A stretch of DNA of 64,000 nt, taken from positions 8,812 through 72,811 of the forward strand of contig CAYZQE010000001.1 of NCBI GenBank assembly GCA_964480635.1, in the 5' to 3' direction. Each line of letters opens with the position of its first letter. The first letter of the stretch is position 1. A model generated the notes under the pieces. It was not told the origin of the DNA. It did not search any database and worked only from the letters and a program-made list of their open reading frames with translations. Source of the stretch: an uncultured Gammaproteobacteria bacterium. Its GTDB lineage: Bacteria; Pseudomonadota; Gammaproteobacteria; GCA-001735895. A program made the position numbers and the translations under genes. Shown here one piece after another: positions 18,819 through 43,814 of this stretch.

Positions 18819-18820
18819 GA

Positions 18821-19312: not shown

Positions 19313-19318
19313 AATTTA

Positions 19319-21883: not shown

Positions 21884-21908
21884 TCTTTAAATTCCTTAGA
21901 GTTAATTA

Positions 21909-24641: not shown

Positions 24642-24674
24642 GAATTAAATCTCTCTCATCCTACTTATTATGAC

Positions 24675-27389
24675 TTAAAATTCTTCCCATTCATCAGCCG
24701 CAGGAGCAGATGGCTCTGGTATCGCTACTGGTGACGAAGTGGGCTTTGATTCACTAGAGGGTGCCTCTTTTTTCAGAGCAGAAGGTGCTTTTAAACTAGT
24801 CTGCGCATCAGATTCAGTTAATTTAAAGTACGTCATTTGCTCTAACATATCATTGGCTCCCTGTGTCATATTGACACTGGCTGCCGATGTTTCTTCTGCT
24901 AACGCTGCATTTTGTTGCGTCATCTCATCCATACTGGCTACCGCAGTATTCGCTTGTTCAATACCCGCTGTTTGCTCTTCACTGGCTGCTGCAATTTCGC
25001 CGACAATATCGCCTACTTTTTTAATGCCTTGAACAATTTCATCCAATGTTTCACCTGATTCATTCACCAAAGAAGAACCAATTTCTACTTTTTTAACACT
25101 ATCTTGAATGAGTTCTTTAATCTCTTTTGCAGCAGTTGCTGAACGTTGCGCTAAATTTCTAACCTCGGTTGCCACAACAGCAAAGCCTCTACCTTGCTCA
25201 CCAGCGCGGGCAGCCTCAACACTCGCATTAAGGGCTAATAGATTAGTTTGGAAGGCAATTTCATCAATCACTCCAATAATTTCTGCAATTTTGTTACTTG
25301 AACTATTGATTTCAGTCATCGCCTTAATCGCGCCTTCTACAACATCACCACCTTTATTGGCAACTTCTCTTGCCGATGCTGCTAAAATATTAGCTTGTTG
25401 TGCGTTATCTGAATTTTGCTTTACGATTGAGGTCAATTCTTCCATGCTGGCAGCGGTTTCTTCAAGAGCACTGGCTTGCTGATCTGTACGACCTGAAAGA
25501 CTATTATTACCCGAGGCTATTTCTGTTGATGCATTGGTCAAATCTGACGTAGAACTGCGTATTTCTCCAATCACTCGGGCAAATTGAACAATGGTTTCAT
25601 TCACATGATCGCTGACCTCGCCAAATGTTCCGCCATAATTATTTTCTATGTGTTTGGTTAAGTCACCGTGAGACAGTGCTGACATGACATTTTTAATGTC
25701 ATCTAATGTATTAGAAATTTCGGCAACCATGTCATTAATACCTTCACTTAAATTAAGGAAGAAACCTGATTTGCCTTGAGTTGCAATGCGTTGATCTAAA
25801 TCACCAGATTTAGCGGCGACTACTATTTGTTCGATTTCTTTTTCGACATTAACTTCTATTGTTCTATCTTCCCATTCCACTACGGTACCAATACGCTCAC
25901 CGTCATCACTCACAACAGGGTTCGCAATAAATCGCATATTATGACCGCCAACAAGAAAATCAGCTTCATGACGCGACTCTAACATTTTAACCAAGCCTCT
26001 TTGGTAACTTGACTCTTTATTAAAAATATCCATATTTGAGCCAACCAAGCTATCAACTGAAAATGCGGGTAAATCTTTAACAATACCTTCTTCTGCATTT
26101 CTAAACATAGAAATAGCAGCATCGTTCATATAAATAATGTCATTTTTTTGATTCACGAGCATGACATTTGCGCTGACATTATCGAGAGCCTGTCTAATAC
26201 GTGAATTCTCTCGACTAATGACCGCATCACTTTCAATGCGCTCTTTAAGGCCTGTTTGCATCGTCTTTAACGAGCCCAACATATTACCCAATTCATCCGT
26301 ACTATTGACGGTGATAGCCCCTGTTAAATCACCCTTAGCTATTTTTTGTACCATATTTAATGCACTAGCAACCGACTCTCTAATGCCTTTTTGGACGATA
26401 TAACCTAAAAACAATGTAATCAGAATTGAAAAAATAGACACTAATGCCGCTGAAATCAATGTCGAGCTTGCTGTATCGCCCATTTCTTTTGATTTATTAA
26501 TTAATGATGTCGTTAAGCTATCTGCAACTTTATTTAATAAATTGATTTTTCCAGTTTGCTGCTGAACCCATTCATCTGGCTCTATGCCAAAAGCACCGTA
26601 ATCTGATGCTTCAAAGGCCTTAGCCCTCATTGCGGCCGTTTTATCAACATATTCACCAACCATTGTGGCGATATAAAGTTCTTTTTGTTGAGCGCTTGCC
26701 AACGAAAGGTAAACGCTTTCATAAACATTTTGCCCGTTGACCGCATTATTAAAATCTGAAAAATTAGCACCTACAAATTGATCGTTTTTAAACACTTGGG
26801 CAAGCACTTTACGCTCTGTAATGGCTAAACTTTTTATGTGTAAAAAATTAGAATAAGATGCCGAAATAATCGCGGCTTCTTTACTGGGGCTCATGGCGGG
26901 TAATAAGCCAATCACATCAAGTAAACTTGAGCTCAGTTGCTTATAAAATGCTGCCGCTTTATTGCGTTTTAATTTTTTATTGTTAATAGCGCTGCGCTTA
27001 TCGTCAATAGTTGCTAACATTTCTTGAGAGCTAGCAACTTGTGCGCTAAAGACATCCGTTACTGCATTATTATCTATGTCATTTAAGGCACCTTTTAGAT
27101 TACTAATGGCTTTATTAGTGTTGCCTCGAGCATTCTCTATTTCTTCGCCAAACTTTTTACCTCTGGCTCTTTGGTACTTTTCGGTAATATTTTTTTCAAT
27201 AACCAATACATCCAATAGCTTATTCGTTGCAATAGCCATTTCAATTAAATTGCTCATCGCCGCAGCTTCTGACGCTGTGTTTTGTGCATTTAGAAACTGT
27301 TTACCCGAAAAAAATACTAAGCTAACTAATGGAATGATTAACATCAATCCTAGTTTTTTACCCAATTTCATATTATTAATTAAATTCAC
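24675..27389 (-). CDS. methyl-accepting chemotaxis protein (904 aa): large periplasmic sensor (NIT-like?), HAMP, PAS, MA domain, and a C-terminal ADEWEEF tail
   Basis: Its architecture resembles the preceding MCP. It ends in ...PAADEWEEF, which resembles the GWEEF CheR-tethering pentapeptide of Pseudomonas McpB/Aer2. Confidence 0.85.
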   Translation of the reverse strand: MNLINNMKLGKKLGLMLIIPLVSLVFFSGKQFLNAQNTASEAAAMSNLIEMAIATNKLLDVLVIEKNITEKYQRARGKKFGEEIENARGNTNKAISNLKGALNDIDNNAVTDVFSAQVASSQEMLATIDDKRSAINNKKLKRNKAAAFYKQLSSSLLDVIGLLPAMSPSKEAAIISASYSNFLHIKSLAITERKVLAQVFKNDQFVGANFSDFNNAVNGQNVYESVYLSLASAQQKELYIATMVGEYVDKTAAMRAKAFEASDYGAFGIEPDEWVQQQTGKINLLNKVADSLTTSLINKSKEMGDTASSTLISAALVSIFSILITLFLGYIVQKGIRESVASALNMVQKIAKGDLTGAITVNSTDELGNMLGSLKTMQTGLKERIESDAVISRENSRIRQALDNVSANVMLVNQKNDIIYMNDAAISMFRNAEEGIVKDLPAFSVDSLVGSNMDIFNKESSYQRGLVKMLESRHEADFLVGGHNMRFIANPVVSDDGERIGTVVEWEDRTIEVNVEKEIEQIVVAAKSGDLDQRIATQGKSGFFLNLSEGINDMVAEISNTLDDIKNVMSALSHGDLTKHIENNYGGTFGEVSDHVNETIVQFARVIGEIRSSTSDLTNASTEIASGNNSLSGRTDQQASALEETAASMEELTSIVKQNSDNAQQANILAASAREVANKGGDVVEGAIKAMTEINSSSNKIAEIIGVIDEIAFQTNLLALNASVEAARAGEQGRGFAVVATEVRNLAQRSATAAKEIKELIQDSVKKVEIGSSLVNESGETLDEIVQGIKKVGDIVGEIAAASEEQTAGIEQANTAVASMDEMTQQNAALAEETSAASVNMTQGANDMLEQMTYFKLTESDAQTSLKAPSALKKEAPSSESKPTSSPVAIPEPSAPAADEWEEF

Positions 27390-27449
27390 TCTTCCACCTT
27401 TCTTACTTTAAGTTTTTACTTTTTTGTATTATATTTTCATGACTGAGTT

Positions 27450-27959
27450 CTATTCTTCTTCTATCTCAACAACTTCATCATATAAATCAGGTGATTTTAA
27501 AAATTCAACGGCATCAAACAGCATGACCATTTGTCCATCTGAATCAGCTAGACCCTTTATAAAGTCAACATCAATACGGTCTGAAAACTCTGGAGTTTTT
27601 CTTATTTTACTTTTTTCAGCATTCAGAACATCTGAAACAGCATCAACAACAATACCTGCAATACGCTCTTTTTCTTGAACTTCGCCTCGCAAAATAATTA
27701 AGACTGTTGTTGCTTCATAAGTCACATGCTCACAATGGCTTTTCATTCTCATATCAACGATGGGGACTGCTGTACCACGCAAATTAAGAACGCCTTTGAT
27801 ATATTTTGGTGTATTAGGAACTCGGGCTACCGACTCCCATCCTCTTATTTCTTGAACACTCAGTAATTTAACACCATATATTGACTCACCAACTGTATAG
27901 GTTAGATATTGTTCAAAGTCTTCATTTTGAGATAAATCCTGGGTTGCTTCTTCACTCAT
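27450..27959 (-). CDS. cheW: chemotaxis coupling protein CheW
   Basis: It is 169 aa with a CheW-like domain. Confidence 0.9.
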   Translation of the reverse strand: MSEEATQDLSQNEDFEQYLTYTVGESIYGVKLLSVQEIRGWESVARVPNTPKYIKGVLNLRGTAVPIVDMRMKSHCEHVTYEATTVLIILRGEVQEKERIAGIVVDAVSDVLNAEKSKIRKTPEFSDRIDVDFIKGLADSDGQMVMLFDAVEFLKSPDLYDEVVEIEEE

Positions 27960-27961
27960 TG

Positions 27962-30076
27962 TTATGCCGCCACATCAGTTTTATCGCTCTTCTTTTCAAG
28001 CTTTTTGTTCAGAGTTAAAATCCCGGGCATATCGATAATAAGCGCGACAGAACCATCACCTAAAATAGTGGCCCCTGAAAAACCTTCTATTTTTTTGTAA
28101 TTACTTTCTAATGATTTGATCACCACTTGCTGCTGCCCTAGTAATTCATCAACAAACAAACCTACGTGTTTGTTTTCAACTTCAACAACTACCAATAGCC
28201 CATCTTTTAGATCAACAGGTTTTTCTAGTTCAACACCAAAAATGTCATGCAGCTTTATAATGGGGACGTATTCTTCTCGTAGCTTGAATGTTTCTCCCTG
28301 CCCCCCAACCATATTGACCATATCAGGTTGTATTTGGATTGACTCTACAATTGAAATAATAGGGATAATGTAATTTTCATTACCAACAGAGACTGTTTGT
28401 CCATCGACAATTGCTAGGGTTAATGGCAAACGAATTCGCATTGTACTGCCTTTTCCTAACGCTGAATCAATCTCGATTGAGCCCCCAAGCTCTAAGATAT
28501 TTCGACGAACCACATCCATGCCAACACCACGGCCAGACACATCACTAACAACCGCAGCTGTTGAGAAGCCCGGCAAGAAAATCAATTCAAATATTTGACG
28601 ATCAGTTAAAATATCACCTTCGATAATAAGCCCCTTTTCGACTCCTTTTTTATATAAAACATCCTTATCCATACCTTTACCATCATCGATAATTTCGATA
28701 ACAATATTACCGCCTTGGTGATAGGCATTTAAATTTATTGTTCCTAACTCTTCTTTACCTGCTGCCACACGATCTTCTGGCATTTCAATACCATGATCTA
28801 AACTGTTACGCACAAGATGTACGAGAGGGTCACCAATTTTTTCAATAACTGTCTTGTCTACTTCAGTTGCCTCACCCGAAAGAATCAATTCTATCTTCTT
28901 GCCCATTTTTCCTGATAAATCACGAACCAAACGTGGAAAACGTGAAAAGGTAAAACTAATCGGCATCATTCGAACTTGCATCACGCTTTCTTGCAGCTCA
29001 CGTGAATTACGCTCTAACTGCATCAAACCATCGCGTAAACGGTCTATTTCAGCGACATCAATTGATCCTCTTTCTTCAATGTTTTCACCAATTAAACCTA
29101 GCATTGATTGAGTAATCACTAACTCACCCACCATATTGATCAAAGCATCAATTTTATCGGTATCTACTCTTATAGAGGCATTAGCTTGAGCTGCTGGTTT
29201 TTTACTTCCTCTTCGGTCATTCTTACGGCGATCACCACCTTTGGCCTTTTCACTGTCTGCACTATCACCATCTCTTCTTTGAGGAATGGGTAATTGTGAC
29301 TTTTCTGCCGGCTTCACCCCATCTGCTTGTGCATTGCCATCTTGTAATGCAATAATTTCTAAATCACAAAGGTCTTCAACCCAAGCAAAAATCTCACTGA
29401 GCACATCTTTATCTGCATCCGTTATTATTTTCAATTCCCAACTGATATAACTTTGTTCAGCATCGAGCATTTCAAAGGGCGGTATCGCATTTAAATCTGT
29501 TGTCAGCTCTACTTCACCTAGTGATGAAAGCTCTCTTATTAATGGTAATGGATCATTACCCGTATGAAAAATATCGCTGTTTGGCTTAAACTTTATCAAC
29601 CAACCTTGGCCAGGCGAGTCACCTGCCGTTACGGCTTTAGTAGGAGCGTTTGTTTCTTCTTTAGCCGCTAAATTTTCGCCAGCAGCTTCATTACCCAGTT
29701 CTTTTTCGAGCATTGCTTTATGCTCTTTAACACGTGCTTCGTCTGGGTCATCGCCTTCTTGCGCGGCTTCTAGCATTTCTCTTAAACAGTCGGTTGACTT
29801 TAATAGAAGGTCTGAATTTGCAACAGTAACATCACGCTTACCATCTCGCATTTCATCAAGAAGCGTTTCCATGACATGGGTAAACGAAGCGACTTCCATA
29901 AAGCCGAAAGTACCCGAACCACCCTTTATAGAATGAGCGGCTCTAAAAACACTATTAATAACCTCAGAATCAGCTTCACCTGGCTCTAAATCCATTAATC
30001 CGGTTTCCATAATTTCGATGCCTTCGAAACTTTCTTCAAAAAACACCTGATGAAACTGAGCCATATCTATCGACAT
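27962..30076 (-). CDS. cheA: chemotaxis histidine kinase CheA (P1-P5)
   Basis: It has a P1 HPt (FRAAHSIKGGSGTFGF), P3 dimerisation (IRVDTDKIDALINMVGELV), a P4 HATPase with G1/G2 boxes, and a P5 CheW-like domain. Confidence 0.9.
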   Translation of the reverse strand: MSIDMAQFHQVFFEESFEGIEIMETGLMDLEPGEADSEVINSVFRAAHSIKGGSGTFGFMEVASFTHVMETLLDEMRDGKRDVTVANSDLLLKSTDCLREMLEAAQEGDDPDEARVKEHKAMLEKELGNEAAGENLAAKEETNAPTKAVTAGDSPGQGWLIKFKPNSDIFHTGNDPLPLIRELSSLGEVELTTDLNAIPPFEMLDAEQSYISWELKIITDADKDVLSEIFAWVEDLCDLEIIALQDGNAQADGVKPAEKSQLPIPQRRDGDSADSEKAKGGDRRKNDRRGSKKPAAQANASIRVDTDKIDALINMVGELVITQSMLGLIGENIEERGSIDVAEIDRLRDGLMQLERNSRELQESVMQVRMMPISFTFSRFPRLVRDLSGKMGKKIELILSGEATEVDKTVIEKIGDPLVHLVRNSLDHGIEMPEDRVAAGKEELGTINLNAYHQGGNIVIEIIDDGKGMDKDVLYKKGVEKGLIIEGDILTDRQIFELIFLPGFSTAAVVSDVSGRGVGMDVVRRNILELGGSIEIDSALGKGSTMRIRLPLTLAIVDGQTVSVGNENYIIPIISIVESIQIQPDMVNMVGGQGETFKLREEYVPIIKLHDIFGVELEKPVDLKDGLLVVVEVENKHVGLFVDELLGQQQVVIKSLESNYKKIEGFSGATILGDGSVALIIDMPGILTLNKKLEKKSDKTDVAA

Positions 30077-30274: not shown

Positions 30275-31474
30275 ATGCAAAAGCACAGTGTAAAAATAGG
30301 TAATATTTTTGTTGGTGGGAATCATCCCGTCATGATCCAATCAATGACCAATACAGATACTGCTGACATTAATAAAACAGTAGAGCAAATTAAAGCTTTA
30401 GCTGATGCGGGTTCTGAATGCGTGCGGGTGACGGTTAACAACAATGAATCTGCTGCTGCCATACGTCCTATTAAAGAAAAGCTGTTACAACAAAATTACA
30501 CCACACCTATCATTGGTGACTTTCATTTCAATGGACATAAATTATTAAAAAAATATCCTGAGTGCGCTGAGTTTTTAGATAAATACAGGATCAACCCAGG
30601 CAATGTTGGCAAAGGAAAAAAAAGAGACTCTCAATTTCATGAAATGATTGAAACTGCTTGTCAATTTAATAAACCTGTCCGCATTGGGGTCAACTGGGGG
30701 AGTTTAGACCAATCCCTTTTAGCGAATCTTCTGGATACTAACTCTGCTTTAAAAATACCGAAACCTTTAACCGACATCAATAAAATTGCGGTTATTCAAT
30801 CAGCCCTTGAGAGTGCAAAAATGGCTGAACATATTGGTTTAGGTAAGGATCAGATTATTATTAGTTGCAAAATGAGCCGAGTGCCTGACTTAATTGATGT
30901 GTATGAAAAATTAAACGCCCAATGTGACTATGCCTTACATTTAGGTTTAACTGAGGCGGGCATGGGCAGTAAAGGCATCGTATCTTCTACTGCTGCACTG
31001 TCTATTTTACTCAGGCAAAACATAGGTAACACGATTAGAATCTCGTTAACACCTGAACCTGGTGAAGCCCGAACAAAAGAAGTGCAAGTGGCTCAAGAGA
31101 TATTACAATCACTCGATTTACGATCGTTCACACCGAGTGTTGTTTCATGCCCCGGTTGTGGTCGAACGAGCAGTGAGTATTTTCAAGTGCTTGCTAAAGA
31201 TATTCAGCAACAGCTCAACGACAATATGTCTAGCTGGAAATACAGCCATCCAGGTGTCGAAAAAATGAACGTGGCGATTATGGGCTGCGTTGTTAATGGC
31301 CCAGGTGAAAGCAAACATGCCAATATTGGCATTAGCCTACCGGGAAATGGAGAGCTACCTGTCGCACCTGTTTATGAGGATGGTAAAAAAACAGTCACCT
31401 TAAAAGGTGACTCAATTGCTAATGAGTTTATGCAGTTAGTTGAAAATTATGTCGCTCGAACTTATTCGCAATAA
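30275..31474 (+). CDS. ispG: 4-hydroxy-3-methylbut-2-enyl diphosphate synthase (IspG/GcpE)
   Basis: Conserved IspG blocks are [49 protein letters not shown] and YEDG. It is on the opposite strand to all flanking signalling genes. Confidence 0.85.
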
Positions 31475-31506: not shown

Positions 31507-31812
31507 TTAAAGGATATTCAAAATCTCACAAGCCACTTCAAATTTAATAGGCACTGATCCTTCAATAGGAATAGAGCGAATAACAGATGCTCTTGCTTCC
31601 ATAGGCGGCGTAATCGAATTAACAGGCGTCAACTTCACCAATAATTCTGACTTAGGCTCAAACTCATCTTCTAACTCTAATAAAAAACCTTTCGCGCTTA
31701 AATTTTTAACACCACCTTCACCTGATCGACTATCTGCCTCACAGCAATACGTCATGACACATTCAATGGCCATCCTTTGGAAGTCGCGTTTTTCATCATA
31801 ATTATGATCCAT
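31507..31812 (-). CDS. single-domain PilZ protein (c-di-GMP binding)
   Basis: It has the RxxxR motif (RDFQRM) and the D/NxSxxG motif (NLSAKGF). It is 101 aa. Confidence 0.6.
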   Translation of the reverse strand: MDHNYDEKRDFQRMAIECVMTYCCEADSRSGEGGVKNLSAKGFLLELEDEFEPKSELLVKLTPVNSITPPMEARASVIRSIPIEGSVPIKFEVACEILNIL

Positions 31813-31827
31813 AAAATTTCCCCTCAG

Positions 31828-32142
31828 TTAAATTTTAAATAATTTACCAAAGTTGGCAACGTCTAATATTTTTTTAACATCTACGGATGTATTAACAATA
31901 TCAACTTTAGAGCTTTCCCCACCTGCATGTTCTCTCAGTAATAAAAGCATACCTAAAGCGGAGCTATCTAAATATTCAGTCGCCGACAGATCGACAACAT
32001 AATGCACACCATTCCCATCTGTTTCATCATATGATGTTCTAAATTCATCATATAACTGAAAGTCAAACTTACCTGATACTGATATTGTTACTTTTTTACC
32101 GCCATCTGCGATCGTACTATTTATTGCCATCAATGACTCCAT
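31828..32142 (-). CDS. STAS-domain protein (SpoIIAA-like anti-sigma factor antagonist)
   Basis: It is 104 aa and carries the conserved phosphorylatable-Ser region 'VDLSATEYLDSSALGMLL'. Confidence 0.7.
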   Translation of the reverse strand: MESLMAINSTIADGGKKVTISVSGKFDFQLYDEFRTSYDETDGNGVHYVVDLSATEYLDSSALGMLLLLREHAGGESSKVDIVNTSVDVKKILDVANFGKLFKI

Positions 32143-32200
32143 TACAATTTAATTTTTAATTTTTAATGCTTAATGTATAGCAGCTATTTCAGTTACTGCC

Positions 32201-32245
32201 ATAATTTTTAAACTTTTTAAACTTTTTAAACTTTTTAAACTTTAA
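32201..32245. repeat. 9-bp tandem repeat (taaactttt, about 4.5 copies) in the MCP-like/STAS intergenic region
   Basis: It is read directly from the sequence at 32201-32245, immediately 3' of the MCP-like stop and upstream of the STAS gene. Confidence 0.7.
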
Positions 32246-32249
32246 TTCC

Positions 32250-33458
32250 TTAAAATAATTCTATTTCACCTTCTTCCATCGAACTCTGTCCAACTGCCTT
32301 GTTAATAGGCGTAGACCATTCTTGCTTTAATACTTCTATGCTAGATTTAAATTCATTTAAAACTAATAAGGTATCTAGATCATTTACATTTGTATTTTCT
32401 TGTAACACATTCATTTGAGACTTTAAGTTTTGTACGAGATCATGCAAACGATTCACATGTTCGCCGCTATATTGAACAACTTGAGAAACGACATCTTCAA
32501 ATTGTAATGACAGTATAGCCACGCCGACTGATTTATTAATATCATCTGTTACTGCTGAAATTTTCTTTAGTTCCTCAGCTACATGTTCATCGTATCGACC
32601 AATATCATCTAACATTGAATCTACTCTATCTTTTGAAGATATTGTCTCTGTCATATCTCGAGACGCCATAGCCGTTACTAACGCTTTAGCCTCAGAAATA
32701 CCTGCTTTAGATTTAACAATAACAGTGCGTATCTTTTCACTAAAGTCATTTGAGTTTTTAGACAGATTACGTACTTCATCAGCAACAACAGCAAAGCCTC
32801 GACCCGCCTCACCCGCTCTAGCCGCTTCAATCGCTGCATTTAATGCCAATAAATTAGTTTGTTGGGCAATTTTACTCACATCATCAAGCAGCTTAAACGC
32901 CTGATCCATTTCTTTAGCAATATCATCAATGGTGTAAACCATTTTCATACTGCTTTGGCTGGTGGATAACAGCATTTGAATAAAGTGCTGCAATAGCTGA
33001 TTGGTCTCATCAACAAAACCACGCATATTAAAACTACCATTATCTTCATCTGGCTCAACCATGCCTAGAACTAGAGCGCCTTGAAGCTGGCTAAACTGAT
33101 TTAAATCTGTAAAGCTCCCGCCTAACTTACCCGTGGCATCAAGAACAACCGTATTAATTTGAGTGAGTGAATCTTTAATCTCATTTGTTTGACCTTCAAC
33201 TAAGCTGTTTAAACCCAACAATAAATCAAATAGTTCTTTAATAACGACACTATGAACTTGATCTGAAGATTCAATATCACTTAGTTTCTCTTCTTCAGTA
33301 TTAAGACCCAATAGAACACCTATAAATGCCACTAGGAGCAAACCATCTAAAAGTTCAAACGAACTTAGTAAACGAATAATAATAATGCTAAATACAGTCA
33401 CTGCACTGATTGCCAATAAACGATGTTTTAGCACAAATTGTTTTGTTAATAATTTCAT
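32250..33458 (-). CDS. membrane-anchored MCP-like signalling protein (two N-terminal TM helices with essentially no periplasmic domain, plus an MA domain)
   Basis: It has the conserved MA hairpin tip [37 protein letters not shown]. It is 402 aa and ends ...EEGEIELF. Confidence 0.75.
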
Positions 33459-34228
33459 TATGCCGTTACCATCGTACGGTGATTTAACAAATCATCCGCT
33501 AATTTGGCATAATCTAAGGCACCATTACTGCGAGGTTTATATTCAAAAATTGTTTGCCCAAAACTAGGACTTTCTGCCACGGGGGCGCATTCTCTCACTG
33601 GTGTCGCCAAAACTTGATTAGGAAAGTAACTCATTAATTTATCTTTAATTTCATTTGATAATCGACGCCTTACAGTGAAACGAGTAATAGCCACCCAAAT
33701 TTTAAGCGTTTTACCCATGTAGCTTTCTGTGCTTTTTATTGTTTTTAATAATTGAGATAAGCCATGTAATGCCAGATAATCACTAGACACAGGGATGACT
33801 ATTTCATCAGCAGCGAATAAGGCATTAAAGTTAAGCAAGCCTGAGGTTGGTGGGCAATCAAAAATAATAAAATCATATTGAGTACGAATACCTTCGAGTG
33901 CTTGCTGCAATAACTTGGCTTGAGAAGCACCCTTTGCTGATAACTTTTCAACCTCGGTTAATCTATATCCTGAAGGAATTAAGTCTAGGTTTTTTCGCAC
34001 CGTAACAATACTATCAACAATATCATCACCATCTAAAAACACATCGTCTATGCCAGCATTTTCGGGGTCTGTTTCACCTAAACTTACAGACAAATGGGAC
34101 TGAGGATCAAGATCAATGGCCAACACCTTATGGCCTTTAAGCGCGAATGAATAGGATAAATTAGAAGCAGTTGTTGTTTTTCCTACACCGCCTTTATTAT
34201 TTAAGACGGCTATGACACGAGTTTCCAT
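33458..34228 (-). CDS. ParA/MinD-family P-loop ATPase
   Basis: It has a deviant Walker A ([16 protein letters not shown]). It is 256 aa and overlaps the downstream MCP-like start. Confidence 0.8.
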
Positions 34229-34255
34229 GTGAATACTACACCATTTTATTTAAAA

Positions 34256-34618
34256 CTAACCCAAAGCGCGTTTTATCACTGACAGCAATTGGTCCGGATT
34301 AAAAGGCTTTACAATCCAACCAGTAGCTCCGGCATTTTTACCTGCCATTTTCTTATCTGCAGCTGATTCGGTTGTAAGCATTAATAAAGGAGTGAATTTA
34401 AAACTAGGTAGCTTTCTTAACTCTGCGATAAGAGATATACCATCCATATTTGGCATGTTTACATCCGTTATCACTAGATCAAAACTCTTTGTTTTCGCAA
34501 TATTTAATGCGACCAACCCATCTTCGGCATCAGTCACATCATAACCAGCACTTTTTAATGTAAATGAAACCATTTGTCTCATTGATGCTGAATCATCAAC
34601 AGCTAAAATTGTAGCCAT
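34256..34618 (-). CDS. single-domain response regulator (CheY-like receiver)
   Basis: It is 120 aa with a REC domain. Its residues include DD (ILAVDDS), the phospho-acceptor D (LVITDVNMP) and the T/K pair. Confidence 0.8.
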   Translation of the reverse strand: MATILAVDDSASMRQMVSFTLKSAGYDVTDAEDGLVALNIAKTKSFDLVITDVNMPNMDGISLIAELRKLPSFKFTPLLMLTTESAADKKMAGKNAGATGWIVKPFNPDQLLSVIKRALG

Positions 34619-34787
34619 TCTTCACTCCTAAATATTATATTAAATTATTGTTTAGCGACCTATCTTAAGCTGCCTTTTTCTTCTTCAATGAAGTATAGCG
34701 GCATATTTAAAAAATTCTTTAAAATATTAAAGATTAAATTGTATTGAATTTTAAATATGACAATTTATGACACATTGTAAAAGTATT

Positions 34788-35783
34788 TTAACCGACAATA
34801 ATTCTGTTTTTTCCCGCTTTTTTCGCCTTATAGAGCGCTTTATCTGCGCGTTTAAATGACCTCTTAAAATCATCTCCAGCCAAGACCATCGTCACACCAA
34901 TACTCACACTGATTTCAATACTTGGATCACAATCAGGTAAGGTTAAATTATCAATGCCTAATCTCACTCGCTCTGCCACGTCTAACGCACCTTGCATATC
35001 CGTTTGAGGTAACGCACTGACGAATTCATCCCCCCCATAACGATAGAGTAAATCTGTATTTCTCACCGCTTCTTGTAAAACAACCCCAACATCTTGCAGC
35101 ACTCGATCTCCGGCATCATGGCCGCATAAATCATTGATAACTTTAAATCCATCTAAATCCATAACCATCATTGCCATAGAGTGTTCATGCCTTTTTACTA
35201 AGCCAATTTCTCTTGGCAAGAACTTTTCCATTGCCGTACGATTTCCTAAATGTGTCAGTGGATCGACATAAGCAGATTTTAGAGCTGTCTGATACATCAA
35301 TGCGTTTTTTACTGGATATACTAAACCACACAGATAATCTTCAAACTCACAGACTTCATTAGTCGAAAATCGACTATTTCGATAGATCGTTATTTCACCT
35401 AATAACTGCTCGCGTAATGTAATGCGATAATGCAAGCTAAACCGATCGACATTCCCCATGCTCACTGGTGCATCAACCCTCTCTGAAATAAACCGATAGG
35501 CATTATGGGGAATTAAATTCTGGATTTCACCCGAAAAAGAGCTGATCACATCAGTGATTTCTAAAGTTCGTGATAGCAAATCAGACAATTGTAGTATTTT
35601 TATAAACTTTTTATCACTGGTTACAAGTTCACTTTTACGCGAGTCTAAAGCAATAACTTGAGCATTTCGTGATTTGCTTGTCACATTTAATATCGTCGGT
35701 GTATTCATAAGCTCTATACCTAAATTCAATAATATCTTTAAACATGCGAAAGTCATGCCAATAAAAAAATCATAGGGAATCAA
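34788..35783 (-). CDS. GGDEF-domain diguanylate cyclase with an uncharacterised N-terminal sensory region
   Basis: It has a 'RYGGDEF' active-site motif. The N-terminal start is uncertain because an internal ATG is possible. Confidence 0.8.
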   Translation of the reverse strand: MIPYDFFIGMTFACLKILLNLGIELMNTPTILNVTSKSRNAQVIALDSRKSELVTSDKKFIKILQLSDLLSRTLEITDVISSFSGEIQNLIPHNAYRFISERVDAPVSMGNVDRFSLHYRITLREQLLGEITIYRNSRFSTNEVCEFEDYLCGLVYPVKNALMYQTALKSAYVDPLTHLGNRTAMEKFLPREIGLVKRHEHSMAMMVMDLDGFKVINDLCGHDAGDRVLQDVGVVLQEAVRNTDLLYRYGGDEFVSALPQTDMQGALDVAERVRLGIDNLTLPDCDPSIEISVSIGVTMVLAGDDFKRSFKRADKALYKAKKAGKNRIIVG

Positions 35784-35986: not shown

Positions 35987-37639
35987 TTGCCCACCATGGA
36001 AATTAAGGCCACAAACACTGCCACCTTGAATTCTAAAACTGTTCATAAGCTACAAGATTTACTCATTAAGTTTGAACACAATTTATTTAAAGCAATTATT
36101 AGCGCTAAAGTTAGCAATGAAACATTTGTCATCAATAGCAAGGCAGGTTCATTACAAATTAGCAGCAAACTTAATCTACAAATTGGCGATGAACTCACAT
36201 TAAATGTTAAGCTCGATAAAGCGTCACAGACTTTGTCTTTAAATATTTCTAAAATTGAGCGCCCTGTTGTTAAAACCCAGAATCTACAAACTTTAAACGC
36301 AACGCCGATCACTATTAGTCATAAAAATGATATAAAGCAGTTACCCCATACTCAAGAGCACTTCGTTGCGAAGATTATCAGTATCGATAAAAAACATATT
36401 TATCTTCAAGATTTAAAAGGACAAAATTTTTCGGTAACGAAAGCAAACCTTAGTCATCTTTCATCTAATTTTCAAAAAGGTGAGCACGCCATCATCAAGT
36501 GGACATCCCCCGAAAAGGCAGAAATTCGGCCTATCGTTAAAGAGCATTTATTACACCAAGTCCAACGTCAATTATTACCTCAGCAAACAAGCAACCAACA
36601 AACTCATCAACGTTTAACCCAAGCCGCCTTTAAGCTATTTCAGGCCATCAATAACGAGATCATAAGCAAGAACAACGCATCGACAACATCTGCTGCTTCA
36701 GTCCACGCCAAACCAACCGAGAGACAGGCACCTTTGGCTATACTTAAGGCTCAACAAACGCATAGTACTGTAAAAGAAAATATCGATGTGAAGCTTGGCA
36801 ACCTCAAAGAAGCTATAAAACCAAGCCCATCAGTTGCACCACAGGTTTCAAAACCAAGCAATAGTAACAACGTCATTATTAAGCATACTCAAGATACTAT
36901 TGAGACCATTAAAATTGATTTACAACGTCTTTTAACGACACATAAAATCACACCCAATCTACTTAAGTCAGAGACTATTCTAAAGCTTCTAACTGACTTA
37001 AATATCATTAGTAAATCAATCCTCCATGACTCAAGCAATAAAACATTTATTCACAAATTATCTCTTATTACCCAGTCTATCGACCTTGTTTTAAATGCAT
37101 CAGACGATATGAAAAAGGGCGCCAAGCAAAATAGTAACGATGAATTATTGAGTGAACTATTAAAAACAACTTTAAAGGATGCTAAACAAACGATTGAATT
37201 GACTATTCATAAAATGCTTTTTCAAACGGCTTCATCCAAATTAAACCAAGAAATAAACTCTTCATTATTAATCAATACCCAAATTCCTTTTGAAATAGAC
37301 AAAAAAACGAAAGATATCGCTTTAAAAATCAAACAACATAAAAATGATAGCCATGATAAAGAGGATACTTGGGAAATTCATTTATCCTTAGAAATGGGTT
37401 TATTAGGATTAATTAGCACAAAGATTATCCTTAAAGATAGTTTAGATGTCTCTGTTACCTTTTGGGCTGAACTGTATAAAACCAAACAACTCATCGATGA
37501 AAAAAAGAATGTTTTTCATCGGCAAATGACTAAAGCTGGGTTTAACTTAAGTCACATCAATATATTTCTTGGAAAAAAAATTGATGAGGTGCCACCTATT
37601 CAAATTAGCGACAAACAATTTATTGATATCAATGTCTAA
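35987..37639 (+). CDS. Q/T/K-rich protein, possibly a flagellar hook-length control (FliK)-like protein
   Basis: It is 550 aa and low-complexity. I recall similar 'FliK-like' genes paired with FlhB-C-like genes next to cheW in Vibrio and Shewanella. I cannot confirm the family from the sequence alone. Confidence 0.35.
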   Translation: MPTMEIKATNTATLNSKTVHKLQDLLIKFEHNLFKAIISAKVSNETFVINSKAGSLQISSKLNLQIGDELTLNVKLDKASQTLSLNISKIERPVVKTQNLQTLNATPITISHKNDIKQLPHTQEHFVAKIISIDKKHIYLQDLKGQNFSVTKANLSHLSSNFQKGEHAIIKWTSPEKAEIRPIVKEHLLHQVQRQLLPQQTSNQQTHQRLTQAAFKLFQAINNEIISKNNASTTSAASVHAKPTERQAPLAILKAQQTHSTVKENIDVKLGNLKEAIKPSPSVAPQVSKPSNSNNVIIKHTQDTIETIKIDLQRLLTTHKITPNLLKSETILKLLTDLNIISKSILHDSSNKTFIHKLSLITQSIDLVLNASDDMKKGAKQNSNDELLSELLKTTLKDAKQTIELTIHKMLFQTASSKLNQEINSSLLINTQIPFEIDKKTKDIALKIKQHKNDSHDKEDTWEIHLSLEMGLLGLISTKIILKDSLDVSVTFWAELYKTKQLIDEKKNVFHRQMTKAGFNLSHINIFLGKKIDEVPPIQISDKQFIDINV

Positions 37640-37934
37640 TTCAAATTCATCGACCAAACAAAATTTTGCCATTGCATTAAGTTACGATGGCGATGCCCCA
37701 CCTATCGTCACTGCGACTGGTCAAAATGATACTGCGGAAGAAATTTTAAAGCTTGCCGAAGAGGCTGATGTACCCATTTTTGAAGATCATGAATTGGCTA
37801 CTTTATTAAATGACCTAGAATTGGGCGAGCATATCCCAAAACCACTTTATAGGATCATTGCTGAAATACTGAGCTTTGCTTATATGCTCTCAGGAAAACA
37901 TAAAAGCTTTATGGACAAACTGAAGCGCCCATAG
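37632..37934 (+). CDS. FlhB C-terminal-domain-like protein (EscU/YscU/FlhB_C family paralogue)
   Basis: 'KQNFAIALSYDGDAPPIVTATGQND...IPKPLYRIIAEIL' aligns with this window's FlhB C-terminus 'NPTHFAVALQYNPDNMAVPKVLAKGKD...IPAHLFFAVAQIL'. The start at 37632 overlaps the upstream ORF by 8 nt. Confidence 0.7.
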   Translation: MSNSNSSTKQNFAIALSYDGDAPPIVTATGQNDTAEEILKLAEEADVPIFEDHELATLLNDLELGEHIPKPLYRIIAEILSFAYMLSGKHKSFMDKLKRP

Positions 37935-38063: not shown

Positions 38064-38540
38064 TTAAAACCCTGACATATCGCCCCATTCGGATTCAGAT
38101 AGTAGTTTATTTAAATCAACCAAAATTAATAATTGCTCTCCTCTGCTAACAACACCATCAATATACTTAGAGGTGTCATCATTACCAACATTAGGAGCCG
38201 TTTCAATTTCTGAGCGTTTAATATCGACAACTTCAGCAACGCTGTCTACCAATATGCCTATCGTATGTGTACTAGCCTCTATAACGATGATACGTGAAAG
38301 ATCATCATCCTCTTTAGACATTAAACCAAAACGAGTACGTGCATCGATAACACTGACCACATTACCACGTAAATTAATAATGCCAATCACATAATGTGGT
38401 GCACCAGGAACTGGTGCTACTTCTGTTTCTCGCAGTACTTCTTGCACTTGCATAACATTAATGCCGTAAATCTCACCTTCTAAGGTAAAAGTCACACATT
38501 GAAAATCGTCTTTTGTATCATCGTTGTCTTGTTGAGCCAT
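38064..38540 (-). CDS. cheW: chemotaxis coupling protein CheW (flagellar cluster)
   Basis: It is 158 aa with a CheW-like domain. Confidence 0.9.
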   Translation of the reverse strand: MAQQDNDDTKDDFQCVTFTLEGEIYGINVMQVQEVLRETEVAPVPGAPHYVIGIINLRGNVVSVIDARTRFGLMSKEDDDLSRIIVIEASTHTIGILVDSVAEVVDIKRSEIETAPNVGNDDTSKYIDGVVSRGEQLLILVDLNKLLSESEWGDMSGF

Positions 38541-38574
38541 TTAATGCCTCCAAAGTTTATTGTTGTAATTAAAA

Positions 38575-38622
38575 CTCTTTGCGTAAAACTAAATTTCAAG
38601 CGTTTTAGCTTTATGCAAAGAG
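38575..38622. other. hairpin in the parP-cheW intergenic region / cheW 5' leader
   Basis: The arms ctctttgc and gcaaagag flank an approximately 30-nt loop. Confidence 0.4.
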
Positions 38623-38646
38623 TTCATCTAATAAGCGATATTTAAT

Positions 38647-38673
38647 ATATCGGCAAAACTACCTATAAATTAA
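38647..38673 (-). promoter_or_regulatory. candidate sigma-28 (FliA) promoter upstream of cheW
   Basis: The minus strand reads ttaattta-N11-gccgatat, compared with the TAAAGTTT-N11-GCCGATAA consensus. The -10 matches 7 of 8 positions and the -35 is weak. Confidence 0.25.
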
Positions 38674-38729
38674 GCACATTTTAAAAAAAATGCTTAATTA
38701 TTTTCTATTTCTTTTAAAAATCATAACTA

Positions 38730-39482
38730 TTAGTCAGTCATTCTTTCAATATCATCTGTTTTTATAAGTTTTTTTCGAATGGCTTCGGGGTTTAATACCA
38801 GTGCTAACGTTTTTTTTATCGTCCCTAAAGACAAGCGATCCTTCTCTCCTGTATGCCATTTAATATCATCTTCATTTAACGTCACTACGTCCAATAATTC
38901 ATCACAAGAAATAGCCCAGTCATTATCTTTAAAAACTAATAAATGACTTGGGTTAAAGTCATCATTATCCTTGCCTTGTACTATACCCATTAATAATGCC
39001 GCCGTATCAGCCACGCGCACATTACTATCCCTATGTTTCAATAAGCCTTTAAAATAATTAGGGCTATACGGTAATTGAGTTAAGCGATTGCCAAAAGGCA
39101 CAACGCTACCCATTCGTATTAAGGGAATAGAGAGTAAATGCCCTTTCACTTTAAACATTAGGCACTGAACTGGGAAGTTTAACTCTTCTTTTAGTGTTCG
39201 TTCTTGAGCTTTCTTTTTTTGTAGCTTTATTGATGTCTTTTCTAATTCAGTCTCATTGTCATTAACCGATACTTCTGCCGTAATAACAACATCATCTTTA
39301 GTCAACTGCTTTAACGCCGTTAAAGGCGTCTCTAAAACATGAATATTATGGTTTTCATTATTGGCAACAAATTTAACATTTGGCTCGGCAACCGGTTCTG
39401 TCGCCTCTTGTAATAAATGATCAAGATAGCTTTCTACCGCTGTGTTAGCATCAAGCAATTTGCTGGGTTTTATTTTTTTCAT
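38730..39482 (-). CDS. parP: ParP-like protein (C-terminal CheW-like domain) of the ParC/ParP chemotaxis-array positioning system
   Basis: It is 250 aa with a CheW-like C-terminal region. It lies between the ParA-like parC and cheW, as in Vibrio cluster II. Confidence 0.55.
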   Translation of the reverse strand: MKKIKPSKLLDANTAVESYLDHLLQEATEPVAEPNVKFVANNENHNIHVLETPLTALKQLTKDDVVITAEVSVNDNETELEKTSIKLQKKKAQERTLKEELNFPVQCLMFKVKGHLLSIPLIRMGSVVPFGNRLTQLPYSPNYFKGLLKHRDSNVRVADTAALLMGIVQGKDNDDFNPSHLLVFKDNDWAISCDELLDVVTLNEDDIKWHTGEKDRLSLGTIKKTLALVLNPEAIRKKLIKTDDIERMTD

Positions 39483-40260
39483 CTTCTGTTCGCTGCTGTA
39501 TGCCTAATAAAAAATCAAGCAATTGACGGTACGCAATACTACCTCGCGCTTTAGGGTCATACATAGATAATGGCTTGCCAACCTTGCTTGCGTCTCTAAA
39601 TTTTGTATCTATTGGAATGACAGAACCCCATACATTAAAACGATATAGCTCTTTCATTTGCTTTAATGCATCAATAGATGCTCTGGTTCTTTTATCGTAC
39701 ATGGTTGGGATAATCATATAAGGCGTTTTAGTATGCAATGATTTTTCAACCATCTCTAAAGTATGAGTCATACGCTCTAAACCTTTTAACGATAAGAAGT
39801 CTGTTTGCGCTGGAATTAATAACTGATCGCAAGCAGCTAAGGCATTAATCATTAAAATACCTAACATAGGCGGGCAATCAATCACACAATAAGCAAAACG
39901 TGATGAGACCGCTTTTATTGCCTTAGCAACAACTAAACCCTTACCCTGCCCTACGCCCATTTGGCGATCTAAGGTCGCTAATGCAGTCGATGCCGCAAAT
40001 AAATAGGTGTTTTTAATATTCGTTGGTAGTAACAATTTTGCGATATCAACTTGGGATTCAGTTGGGTTTGCAAACAGATTATAAATCCCTGTTTCCATAT
40101 CATCTGGATCATATCCTAAATAACTTGTTAACGAGCCATGAGGATCTAAATCAACCAATAAGGTTCGTTCATCGCCTTGGCATAAATGCCCCGCTAATGT
40201 AACAGCAGTCGTTGTTTTACCAACACCACCTTTTTGATTGATAATTGCCCAAGTTTTCAT
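39451..40260 (-). CDS. parC: ParA-family ATPase ParC-like (chemotaxis array positioning)
   Basis: It has a deviant Walker A ([17 protein letters not shown]). It is 269 aa and sits between cheA and parP. Confidence 0.7.
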   Translation of the reverse strand: MKTWAIINQKGGVGKTTTAVTLAGHLCQGDERTLLVDLDPHGSLTSYLGYDPDDMETGIYNLFANPTESQVDIAKLLLPTNIKNTYLFAASTALATLDRQMGVGQGKGLVVAKAIKAVSSRFAYCVIDCPPMLGILMINALAACDQLLIPAQTDFLSLKGLERMTHTLEMVEKSLHTKTPYMIIPTMYDKRTRASIDALKQMKELYRFNVWGSVIPIDTKFRDASKVGKPLSMYDPKARGSIAYRQLLDFLLGIQQRTEDEKNKTQQIA

Positions 40261-40342
40261 AATTTTTAATCAAATAACAAATCATTATTAAGGGAACCTC
40301 TGACTAAGTCCATAATTTTTATCTAAGCCAAATTTTACTCAG

Positions 40343-40498
40343 CTAGGCGTAGCATTGCAACGTCATCTAGATACCGTAAGATGCTAGAACGACGTTGAGT
40401 GAAATTTGGCAACGACCCGAAGGGCGAGTTATCAAGCCACTCTCTCCGTCGTTCCAACTTTCACTAAGGACTCGTCATTAGCTTCAAGTTGCGCCTAG
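40343..40498. other. structured non-coding element (about 155 nt) bounded by inverted repeats ctaggcg / cgcctag with nested internal hairpins; candidate REP/MITE-like element or small RNA
   Basis: The pairs read from the sequence are ctaggcg...gcaac with gttgcgcctag, caacgtc with gacgttg, tctag with ctaga, and gaacgacg with cgtcgttc. No ORF is present. Confidence 0.45.
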
Positions 40499-40550
40499 GA
40501 TAGAATGGCTTGATAGATCGTAAAAGTTTATGGAGTTAATCAGGATCTCC

Positions 40551-42608: not shown

Positions 42609-42633
42609 TTTACTAACCTTTTACCCTATTTTT

Positions 42634-43380
42634 TTAAAAACCCAGACTTGCTAATAAATCATCAACATCATCTTGATTTGTTGCTACATCGTCTTTACTC
42701 GCTGATGGTAACTGTGGACCATGCGCCTTAGTACCATCTTTCGGCTGATCTTTAGAATCCTTTAGCTTTGCACCAGAAATAGCGACTAATCTGACTAATT
42801 TTTCTTCGACTTCCTTAACCATGGTAATGACTTGTTTAATCATTTGCCCCGTTAAGTCCTGATAATCTTGAGCCAACATGATTTCAGTCATGGATTGATT
42901 GATTTTTGCAGTCTCATTAGGAATAGAAGTCAAAAATTCATCAATGTCGTCACTTAGAACAACAAACTCTTCTTTTGATAGCTCTCTATTACGAAATTGC
43001 TCCCAACGATTTTTAATCTTACTGGCATGATCAGAAAAATTTCCGACAACGGTCATTGTTTCTTCAGCGCCATTCATTGTTTTGTGGGCGGCTTCGTTGG
43101 TTTTTTCGACAATAAAATTTAATCGCTCTGTCGCATCGGGTATTTCATTTTCGGCTAATTCTGCCACTCGATCATCGTCGCTAAAAGCATTTATCGATTC
43201 GTGTATTTCACGCGTTAATTTTCCTAGTTCTTGAAATAAAGACGACTCTCTTAACGTCGTTAACTCACCGACCAAACGATTGACTTCATCAGTATCTTTT
43301 TTATCAATGGCTTTATTCAAGCCTTGAATACGCTCTAAATAATCATCACTTAAAAAATCATCACTGGATTCCGTATTCAT
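42634..43380 (-). CDS. cheZ: CheY-P phosphatase CheZ
   Basis: It has the active-site region '[16 protein letters not shown]' and the C-terminal CheY-binding tail '...[10 protein letters not shown]'. It is 248 aa. Confidence 0.85.
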
Positions 43381-43763: not shown

Positions 43764-43814
43764 GCAACCTCCATAGCATTGCATTGTGTTTTACAGCAAC
43801 TGCGCTAAATTAAC

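Follow-up and report, generated by a model that had tools for sequence, protein, structure and literature searches.

Six genes beside an F7 cheA in an uncultured gammaproteobacterium are probably the displaced front half of an ancestral-type chemosensory cluster with its own ParA

The closest described relatives of the locus studied here are the stage-1 and stage-2 F7 chemosensory clusters, represented by cluster III of Vibrio cholerae (VCA1088-1096), Che2 of Pseudomonas aeruginosa (PA0173-PA0180) and Che1 of Shewanella oneidensis (SO_2117-SO_2126). A stage-1 F7 cluster encodes an anti-sigma antagonist, cheY, cheA, two cheW, aer2, cheR, cheD, cheB, mcpA, a second antagonist and a serine phosphatase (PMC7184735). 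The cheY, mcpA and STAS antagonist genes are parts of clusters of both stages (Ortega et al. 2020, PMC7184735), and an F6 system accompanies the F7 system in all stage 1/2 genomes (PMC7184735). Stationary phase and stress induce F7 systems of this type, which do not drive the flagellum. Here, we analyzed a stretch of 64,000 nucleotides from an uncultured Gammaproteobacteria bacterium (GenBank assembly GCA_964480635.1, contig CAYZQE010000001.1, positions 8,812 to 72,811; "the window" hereafter). Between positions 31507 and 35783 it carries six genes for a GGDEF protein, a receiver protein, a ParA-like ATPase, a protein resembling methyl-accepting chemotaxis proteins (MCPs), a STAS protein and a PilZ protein, which a first-pass annotation had taken for a signaling module of its own. 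Our results indicate that these six genes are almost certainly a displaced part of the adjoining F7 cluster. We consider them, with good but lesser confidence, to be the promoter-proximal front half of a stage-1-like ancestral F7 system, one that has its own ParA and to which a cyclase and a receptor have been added.

All six genes are on the minus strand, and each domain call reached at least the Pfam gathering score, in agreement with the domains first assigned. The gene furthest upstream was originally called at 34788-35783 (Pfam GGDEF, 151 bits, 2.9e-44). Alignment with 11 orthologues placed its start at the ATG at 35708 instead of the TTG at 35783, so that the corrected gene (34788-35708) encodes a soluble diguanylate cyclase of 306 amino acids (aa). 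It is followed by a gene for a stand-alone receiver (REC), the CheY of the F7 system (34256-34618; Response_reg, 98 bits, 4.1e-28), and by genes for a ParA/Soj-type ATPase (33458-34228; AAA_31/CbiA/ParA-type, 175 bits; AAA_31, 1.9e-51) and an McpA-like chemoreceptor (32250-33458; MCPsignal, 106 bits, 3.4e-30). The block ends with genes for a STAS anti-sigma-factor antagonist (31828-32142; STAS/STAS_2, the latter at 5.7e-11), whose start, as judged from orthologue alignment, is probably Met5 (position 32130), and for a single-domain PilZ protein (31507-31812; PilZ, 31.6 bits, 2.2e-07). The tight packing first described for the middle of the block was confirmed: 27 bp separate the REC and parA genes, and the parA stop and the mcpA start have one base in common. 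The remaining gaps measured 169 bp between the GGDEF gene and cheY, 107 bp between mcpA and the STAS gene, and 15 bp between the STAS gene and pilZ.

As the first-pass annotation stated, none of the six genes encodes CheA, CheW, CheR or CheB, and ispG (GcpE; 30275-31474, plus strand) alone separates pilZ from the next cheA (27962-30076). ispG and pilZ converge with 32 bp between them, ispG and cheA diverge with 198 bp between them, and the cheA on the far side of ispG lies 1.4 kb from the block. The description of this cheA as F7-like also held up: its product matched an E. coli-type CheA model from end to end at 607 bits, compared with a partial match of 370 bits for the CheA of the F6 system in the same window, a comparison in which the F7 class was judged indirectly, by way of the E. 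coli-type model.

Is the six-gene block, then, a unit in its own right or a piece of something already known? A metagenome scan seeded on the McpA C-terminal alignment yielded 80 loci, which we mapped by phmmer against the window proteins; orthologous ispG genes in related loci were marked by GcpE Pfam matches. A scan of genome contigs with the full McpA alignment retrieved mostly unrelated receptors by way of the universal MCP hairpin tip, and family members were found only in three loci (L001 to L003). The canonical order in the relatives was cheY-cheA-cheW-aer2-cheW-(ParA-STAS)-cheR-cheD-cheB-mcpA-STAS-(phosphatase). The neighborhood of one McpA family protein (P0106) reads cheY-cheA-cheW-MCP(PAS,CZB)-cheW-STAS-cheR-cheD-cheB-McpA-STAS, and a Chromatiales contig reads ...cheW-ParA-STAS-192aa-cheR-cheD-cheB-McpA-STAS-REC/SpoIIE/HATPase_c_2. 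Vibrio aestuarianus (L002) has the textbook stage-1 order, with its McpA family member in the position of VCA1088. The window contains every gene of the canonical order except the phosphatase, and it follows that order save for ispG and the moved block between cheY and cheA.

The loci fell into three arrangements. Type B is the contiguous stage-1 order, mostly with a ParA gene and a gene for a STAS protein of ∼170 aa between the second cheW and cheR, and type C is the stage-2 order (mcpA-cheY-cheA...). Type A is the arrangement of the window: F6 cheA-parC-parP-cheW, an opposite-strand FliK-like gene, GGDEF-cheY-ParA-McpA-STAS-PilZ, an opposite-strand ispG, and then cheA-cheW-(MCPs)-cheW-STAS302-p187-cheR-cheD-cheB, where STAS302 and p187 denote proteins of 302 and 187 aa. 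It was carried by the 17 best-matching metagenome loci, four contigs with protein P0024 and one 843-kb contig. Every related contig with enough flank showed the order GGDEF-cheY-parA-mcpA-STAS-pilZ-ispG(opposite strand)-cheA, which amounts to 9 distinct complete copies plus fragments in ∼20 loci. Identity to the window in the metagenome loci was 57 to 65% for ParA and 39 to 49% for the McpA C-terminal region. Spacing in type A was 18 to 35 bp for cheY-parA, at most 6 bp for parA-mcpA (with one exception among the loci that have both genes), ∼100 to 190 bp for mcpA-STAS in most loci, and 30 bp or less, or an overlap, for STAS-pilZ in all of them. The GGDEF gene stands 114 to 448 bp upstream of cheY.

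The six genes are thus co-conserved in related genomes and not a chance juxtaposition, which was the first alternative raised against the original proposal. The same comparison showed ispG at the same position, on the opposite strand, in all type A loci with sufficient flanking sequence, and this weakens any argument from synteny. ispG is a housekeeping passenger that splits the F7 cluster. Since this unrelated gene has been retained equally, conserved position alone is no evidence of common function within the type A clade. Two type A loci, L095 and L096 (Ga0209142_1000826 and Ga0233441_1010556), have a frameshifted pilZ and only the last ∼75 codons of the GGDEF gene, and their ispG is frameshifted and interrupted by a 317-aa open reading frame (ORF). 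We read this damage as assembly quality or general decay and not as an informative co-loss, because ispG, an essential gene, is broken too.

Comparison of the receiver with other CheYs tied the block to the cluster beyond ispG. The window REC is 54 to 76% identical to the CheYs that directly precede the F7 cheA in canonical clusters (59% for V. aestuarianus), compared with 35% to the F6 CheY of the window; as judged by sequence, it is an orthologue of the F7 CheY. These observations bear on the original idea of an autonomous, CheA-less module of a new kind that would couple cyclic di-GMP (c-di-GMP) to ParA-dependent positioning of an MCP-like protein or of chemoreceptor arrays. That idea accounts for a compact, co-oriented and co-conserved set of genes, for the translational coupling of parA and mcpA in the window and their close spacing in every type A locus with both genes save one, and for ispG, which stands between the block and cheA and hence implies separate transcription. 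However, cheY, ParA, the McpA-like gene and STAS are ordinary members of contiguous stage 1/2 F7 clusters elsewhere, REC is orthologous to the CheY beside F7 cheA, the canonical ParA is coupled to another gene, and the McpA N terminus is unconserved. We therefore regard an autonomous module as very improbable. Because cheY, mcpA and STAS are canonical F7 parts whose cognate cheA lies so close by, the block is not CheA-less in the functional sense.

The intergenic region between the GGDEF gene and cheY contains a -10-like box, CGCTATACT (34692-34700, minus strand). Most type A loci examined have a GC(C/T)GCTATA or CTGCTATA box in the same intergenic region, and in most of them the position of a GCTATA(C/T)T box upstream of cheY is conserved. 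A short -10-like motif alone is not significant within the window. As a pattern only, CGCTATACT would fit a candidate sigma-S/sigma-70 promoter of cheY-parA-mcpA; sigma-S-type promoters have been reported for F7 clusters of other species. A sigma-28 promoter upstream of cheY was considered and rejected: TAAA-N15-GCCGCTA matches the window once, against an expectation of 0.13, and its -35 part is not conserved in the relatives. A second box with the -10-like pattern GCTATAC(T/A), TGCTATACA, was seen at 32174-32182 (minus strand), within the 107-bp gap before the STAS gene.

Set beside the stage 1/2 clusters of V. cholerae, of P. aeruginosa and of S. oneidensis, the window shows the same gene set, an McpA-type tail of the form [DE][IVL][ED]LF, a STAS gene beside mcpA and a co-resident F6 flagellar system. 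It differs from them in several respects. The window cluster is split by ispG, with cheY-mcpA-STAS placed ahead of cheA; it has no serine phosphatase/kinase gene and has gained GGDEF and PilZ genes; and it includes a ParA, a STAS protein with a DPLAW motif and a 187-aa protein, all absent from the published description, as well as two extra transmembrane receptors. The statement that the block matches neither Wsp nor the ParC/ParP sets was borne out. A Wsp-type (ACF) system was rejected, as the cyclase has no receiver domain, leaving no REC-GGDEF protein, and the receiver is a protein of its own, a CheY with F7 CheYs as orthologues. The window ParA is 27 to 30% identical to ParC and is followed by mcpA, unlike in ParC/ParP systems, where a CheW-like gene takes that place.

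The McpA-like receptor has the hallmarks of its family. It was first described as an MCP signaling domain anchored by two transmembrane helices with no periplasmic sensor, and we likewise found two hydrophobic segments within residues ∼14 to 53, with a loop a few residues long between them; neither a sensor nor a HAMP domain was seen by Pfam or hydrophobicity scan. McpA-like receptors have been described as transmembrane and sensor-less, without a classifiable heptad class and with a conserved C terminus that is not the CheR pentapeptide x[HFYW]xx[HFYW] (PMC7184735); the tails listed are EIELF in SO_2117 and EVELF in PA0180 (Suppl. Table 12, PMC7184735). In the window, the transmembrane hairpin is accompanied by MCPsignal only and by an EIELF tail identical to that of SO_2117. 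Members of the family have ∼400 aa and an invariant C terminus, ...EGEIELF. Their N terminus is unconserved, and is poorly conserved even within type A. By experiment, McpA orthologues join the polar F6 array in three species (PMC9855816, PMC7184735).

The ATPase carries the deviant Walker A motif KGGVGKT, and its best solved relatives are the chromosomal ParA/Soj proteins (8ray, 6iub). It is 57 to 65% identical to the type A copies and 46 to 53% identical to the ParAs of canonical F7 clusters, well above its similarity to ParC. By these sequence relationships the window ParA is a member of one orthologous group specific to F7 clusters. Of the 16 type B loci in which the middle of the cluster is covered, 14 have the F7 ParA, and named carriers include Cycloclasticus sp. 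and Sulfuriflexus mobilis. McpA-bearing clusters that have no ParA include the Vibrio locus L002, L086 and the stage-2 loci. In the literature searched, the coverage of which was incomplete, we met no paper that counts a ParA, PilZ or GGDEF gene among the components of F7 clusters, and the F7 ParA is apparently undescribed so far.

What might this ParA act on? A portable basic N-terminal peptide encoded right after ParA is the usual mark of a ParA partner, as in ParB, McdB and ParP. In all 15 of the 15 type B loci, the next gene has a start that overlaps the ParA stop, and that gene encodes a STAS protein of a distinct kind. Its counterpart in the window is a 302-aa protein (17910-18818, minus strand; STAS_2, 6.7e-09) with an N-terminal lysine run, the sequence YDPLAWL, five acidic EDGFGFF repeats that are nearly identical, and GFF at the C terminus. 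The type B proteins and the 302-aa protein of the window share a Lys/Arg-rich N terminus followed by [YF]DPLAW[LM], an acidic linker and the C-terminal GFF. The DPLAW-type N-terminal motif was found in 21 of 21 such proteins that have an F7 ParA in the cluster and in 0 of 5 short STAS proteins without a ParA; three apparent exceptions to this tracking were artifacts of mapping or contig edges. Across all six reading frames of the window, the motif was found a single time. The short STAS protein of Cycloclasticus has no DPLAW; there, a globin-PAS protein whose gene comes shortly after that of ParA starts with MVDKNKGKKGASLGFDPLAWM....

Further features of these proteins were recorded. The DPLAW-STAS homologues have one to five EDGFGFF-type repeats and end in GFGFF, AAGFF or GLF. 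In the Cycloclasticus sp. locus (L169; JBFLJV010000003.1, 1-18403), ParA is followed by a 54-aa ORF and the globin-PAS protein with the DPLAW N-terminal peptide. Divergent genes at this locus encode STAS, REC-SpoIIE-HATPase_c_2, MCP and REC-REC-GGDEF proteins, which constitute an independent F7/GGDEF neighborhood.

By analogy with known ParA partners, the DPLAW-STAS protein at 17910-18818 may be the partner of the ParA encoded in the block, an assignment that we rate a little short of evenly balanced. If it is correct, the partner of a protein of one half is encoded in the other half, which would further favor a single system made up of both halves.

In Rhodobacter sphaeroides, the ParA-like ATPase PpfA partitions the cytoplasmic receptor cluster through the N terminus of the cytoplasmic receptor TlpT, and ppfA presumably adjoins tlpT. 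Like ParC/ParP and PpfA/TlpT, the F7 clusters include a ParA/MinD ATPase in a che cluster, coupled in the canonical loci to a protein with a basic N terminus. The candidate partner is, however, a STAS-domain protein and not a CheW-like protein or a receptor (PpfA was compared by description only), and, in contrast to TlpT, the receptor encoded next to ParA in the window is membrane anchored and has an unconserved N terminus. One potential explanation for the one-base parA/mcpA overlap in the window and the tight type A spacing is that ParA positions the McpA-like receptor through the N terminus of the receptor, which in the window has several Lys/Arg residues. We consider this improbable: that N terminus is poorly conserved even in type A, in 15 of 15 canonical loci ParA lies far from mcpA and its coupling is to the DPLAW-STAS gene, many McpA clusters (Vibrio L002, L086 and stage-2 loci) have no ParA at all, and McpA is anchored in the membrane and joins polar F6 arrays in three species. 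On the same grounds, support for ParA as the factor that positions the MCP-like protein is weak.

The STAS protein encoded after McpA has SpoIIAA and TM1442 as its best solved relatives, and it matches the family model TIGR00377 (ant_ant_sig). Of the 70 metagenome loci whose sequence continues beyond McpA, 45 have a STAS gene after it, and the STAS proteins next to McpA align as one family with a nearly invariant DSSALGMLL motif. In the window protein, the motif reads Y-L-D-S-S-A-L-G with a phosphorylatable Ser, the first Ser being residue 56 when counted from Met5. HsbA is phosphorylated at Ser56, and HsbA-type STAS proteins bind diguanylate cyclases, stimulating HsbD and inhibiting CfcR (preprint 10.1101/2024.11.25.625174). 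In Shewanella and Pseudomonas, RpoS is under the control of a linked pair, a STAS protein and a REC-PP2C-kinase (PMC9855816; preprint 10.1101/2024.11.25.625174). In relatives of the window, a REC-PP2C-HATPase_c_2 gene, with the architecture of HsbR/CrsR, comes after a STAS gene of this family. No CrsR/HsbR-type PP2C/kinase gene was found at the locus or in the 64-kb window, and the window has no HptB gene. The lack of a CrsR/HsbR-type gene near the block is characteristic of the type A clade. In canonical loci, a CrsR/HsbR-type gene comes directly after STAS in only 7 of 23 informative cases.

The arrangement in the window, a STAS protein with the Ser56 motif beside a cyclase, resembles by description the HptB-HsbR-HsbA systems (with HsbD in P. 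aeruginosa and CfcR in Pseudomonas putida) and CrsR-CrsA of S. oneidensis. It differs from the HsbR/CrsR systems in the lack of an HsbR/CrsR or HptB gene in the window, and its cyclase is soluble, without the membrane anchor of HsbD or the receiver domain of CfcR. The cyclase reads RNTD-LLYRY-GGDEF in all 11 aligned orthologues, i.e., an RxxD I-site five residues before GGDEF, and from these intact motifs it is predicted to be active and of the product-inhibited type. We found no hydrophobic segment in it and no receiver domain by Pfam. Its N-terminal domain of ∼145 aa is conserved in the 11 orthologues and gave no Pfam match at E ≤ 10 and no PDB profile match; it may be GAF-like. The full-length protein is only weakly similar to Shewanella DgcS (NF051473; 152 bits, compared with a cutoff of 400). 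The cyclase is specific to the type A clade, and GGDEF genes also adjoin other F7/CrsR loci, namely L110, L149 and the Cycloclasticus locus L169.

The PilZ protein is the other half of the putative c-di-GMP branch. Its RxxxR (EKRDFQRM, R9-R13) and [DN]xSxxG (NLSxxG, N37-G42) motifs are invariant in full-length type A copies, as is a distinctive loop, LTPxNxITPPM. An AF2 model built from 13 sequences (predicted local distance difference test score of 78.5) is a six-strand barrel with no C-terminal helices, and its best fold matches were c-di-GMP-bound PilZ structures (Alg44 PilZ, PA0012, PA4608/MapZ, YcgR and MotI; Foldseek probability, 1.00). The protein is thus predicted, from the model, to be a canonical c-di-GMP-binding PilZ domain. 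A hidden Markov model of the family matched type A loci only, apart from one weak match (E = 0.002) in an unrelated locus, and a search of 5.8 billion proteins returned 19 relatives. Of the two domain searches that the first-pass annotation had called for, the one on PilZ thus gave a canonical domain, and the one on the GGDEF N-terminal region left that region without a family.

MapZ contacts CheR1 by two C-terminal helices, and HapZ binds the receiver of SagS (preprint 10.1101/2020.02.11.943704). The window protein resembles both in being a stand-alone PilZ barrel with RxxxR and [DN]xSxxG in a chemosensory or partner-switch context, and it differs from MapZ in being a separate sequence family with its own LTPxNxITPPM loop and no MapZ-type C-terminal helices. 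A placement in the MapZ family was rejected, as there was no sequence match to PA4608 or to any PDB chain and the six strands are followed by no C-terminal helix. A functional counterpart of MapZ is a separate question: at high c-di-GMP, the PilZ protein could bind the cluster CheR and alter receptor methylation, so that c-di-GMP would be an input to the F7/F6 array. MapZ-CheR1 is an established precedent (preprint 10.1101/2020.02.11.943704), the protein is a canonical single-domain PilZ inside a che locus, and the window's sole CheR is that of the F7 cluster. Nevertheless, this seems quite unlikely to us: there is no sequence similarity to MapZ, the fold similarity is of a generic kind (TM score, 0.52 to 0.62), the model stops after the sixth strand without the two helices of the MapZ-CheR1 contact, and pilZ is coupled to STAS and not to cheR.

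Do the GGDEF and PilZ genes belong to the system, or are they mere passengers like ispG, with output running through an unlinked CrsR/HsbR-type switch to RpoS? The passenger explanation is helped by ispG itself, which shows that unrelated genes persist at the locus, and by the long gap between the GGDEF gene and cheY. It also agrees with canonical loci, in which CrsR-like genes are often not beside STAS, and with the Ser motif of STAS, which is unchanged, as for a kinase/phosphatase substrate. In contrast, the STAS and pilZ genes are no more than 30 bp apart or overlapping in all type A loci, the PilZ family, with so few relatives in so large a search, is confined to the type A context, and the catalytic and binding motifs of cyclase and PilZ are clearly constrained. 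Moreover, GGDEF genes stand independently beside other F7/CrsR loci, and regulation of a cyclase by a STAS protein has precedent. Taken together, we judge the passenger explanation unlikely, less so than a MapZ-like role. That c-di-GMP is the output of the F7 STAS branch in type A is a possibility that we put forward with clear reservations. The c-di-GMP link proposed in the first-pass annotation is plausible; the wiring is inferred.

The remainder of the F7 cluster, assigned by Pfam, occupies 14729-30076 on the minus strand. Beyond cheA it includes two cheW genes (27450-27959 and 18821-19312), cheR (16484-17311), cheD (15801-16427) and cheB (14729-15775). Between the two cheW genes lie those for three receptors: an MCP with a nitrate/nitrite-sensing (NIT) domain and transmembrane segments (24675-27389), a 910-aa transmembrane receptor (21909-24641) and a PAS/CZB Aer2-like receptor (19319-21883), all on the minus strand. 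The PAS/CZB receptor had the Vibrio Aer2 model as its best match (495 bits, below the cutoff of 1200) and is without the CheR-tether pentapeptide that forms part of the definition of the 36H-class Aer2-like receptor of stage 1/2 clusters. The other two (21909-27389) end in EWEEF and DWDEF, of the CheR/CheB-tether pentapeptide type. A conserved 187-aa protein (p187; 17314-17877, minus strand), which ends DIEFF, is encoded between cheR and the DPLAW-STAS gene. Its family has no Pfam or NCBIfam match and is kept in type A and in some canonical clusters, and all members end DIE[FL]F or DVELF, the tail type of McpA. Comparison of p187 with McpA gave E = 0.41 by BLASTP and E = 0.014, at a probability of 3%, by hhalign. 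The members of the family also carry a AFQFYDKLTQRL motif, which resembles an McpA motif.

On the high-coordinate side of the block is a polar-flagellum operon, fliM...flhA-flhF-flhG-fliA-cheY-cheZ-cheA-parC-parP-cheW, which is an F6-type system. Its fliA-cheY-cheZ-cheA-parC-parP-cheW portion spans 38064-44987, of which the che genes cheY-cheZ-cheA-parC-parP-cheW take up 38064-43784 (minus strand), and it contains the true ParC/ParP pair (38730-40260). There is no cheB between the F6 cheA and parC. The sole CheB and CheR genes of the 64 kb belong to the F7 cluster, and related type A loci show the same pattern. The stretch from the F6 cheW to the GGDEF gene contains, at 35987-37934 on the plus strand, a FliK-like (Flg_hook) gene and an overlapping gene for a 121-aa protein consisting of the FlhB C-terminal domain only. 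This pair is divergent from the GGDEF gene and is present in all type A loci. At the other end, ∼4 kb past the F7 cluster and beyond genes for HAD hydrolase, ABC and FtsX proteins, lies a RelA/SpoT-family (p)ppGpp synthetase/hydrolase gene (8216-10354, minus strand).

How might the parts work together? By homology and synteny, the NIT and PAS/CZB Aer2-like receptors, the two CheW proteins and the F7 CheA would form a sensing array that CheR, CheD and CheB adapt, and the stand-alone CheY of the block would be the cognate regulator of the F7 CheA. The McpA-like receptor, to judge from the experiments on its orthologues, probably inserts in the neighboring F6 polar array and not in the F7 array. 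ParA and the DPLAW-STAS protein may position the F7 array, by analogy with ParC/ParP and PpfA/TlpT. In the absence of a phosphatase at the locus, the STAS branch might be read out via c-di-GMP, with STAS modulating the cyclase as HsbA does HsbD and CfcR; this is the least certain step. PilZ would then carry the c-di-GMP signal to a partner, for which a receiver domain, as in HapZ-SagS, is one option. The proposal as a whole, that ancestral F7 arrays have ParA positioning of their own through a portable DPLAW adaptor and that the output of type A was rewired from an RpoS switch to a cyclase-STAS-PilZ circuit, is one that we advance tentatively.

Several observations weigh against this interpretation. 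The variant is known here from genes alone, and the F7 class of its CheA was judged by the E. coli-type model. In this variant parA is coupled to mcpA and not to the DPLAW-STAS gene. As ispG synteny is also kept, the position of the GGDEF and PilZ genes is no proof of a functional link, and the GGDEF gene, at 114 to 448 bp from cheY, probably has its own promoter. The cyclase is soluble, is no orthologue of the membrane-bound HsbD and has an N-terminal domain without a family assignment, and the PilZ protein does not have the C-terminal helices by which MapZ binds CheR1. Finally, a CrsR/HsbR-type gene could sit elsewhere in the genome, of which 64 kb were seen, given that such a gene adjoins STAS in only 7 of 23 canonical cases.

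Our data thus suggest that what appeared to be an orphan signaling module is a displaced piece of the adjoining cluster. Three things set the variant apart: ispG divides its cluster; it has a dedicated ParA and DPLAW partner, widespread among uncultured relatives and apparently undescribed; and it has the cyclase/PilZ pair. The function of the ancestral F7 system "remains unclear" (PMC7184735). A dedicated ParA with a partner peptide would predict placement and inheritance of F7 arrays, and a cyclase/PilZ pair that stands in for the phosphatase gene would predict a measurable output, c-di-GMP, together with a candidate effector. Current views are not overturned; rather, the variant offers handles, absent from the model organisms, on the output and placement of the ancestral F7 system. 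If both ParA positioning and c-di-GMP rewiring are true, the function of this system would become experimentally approachable.

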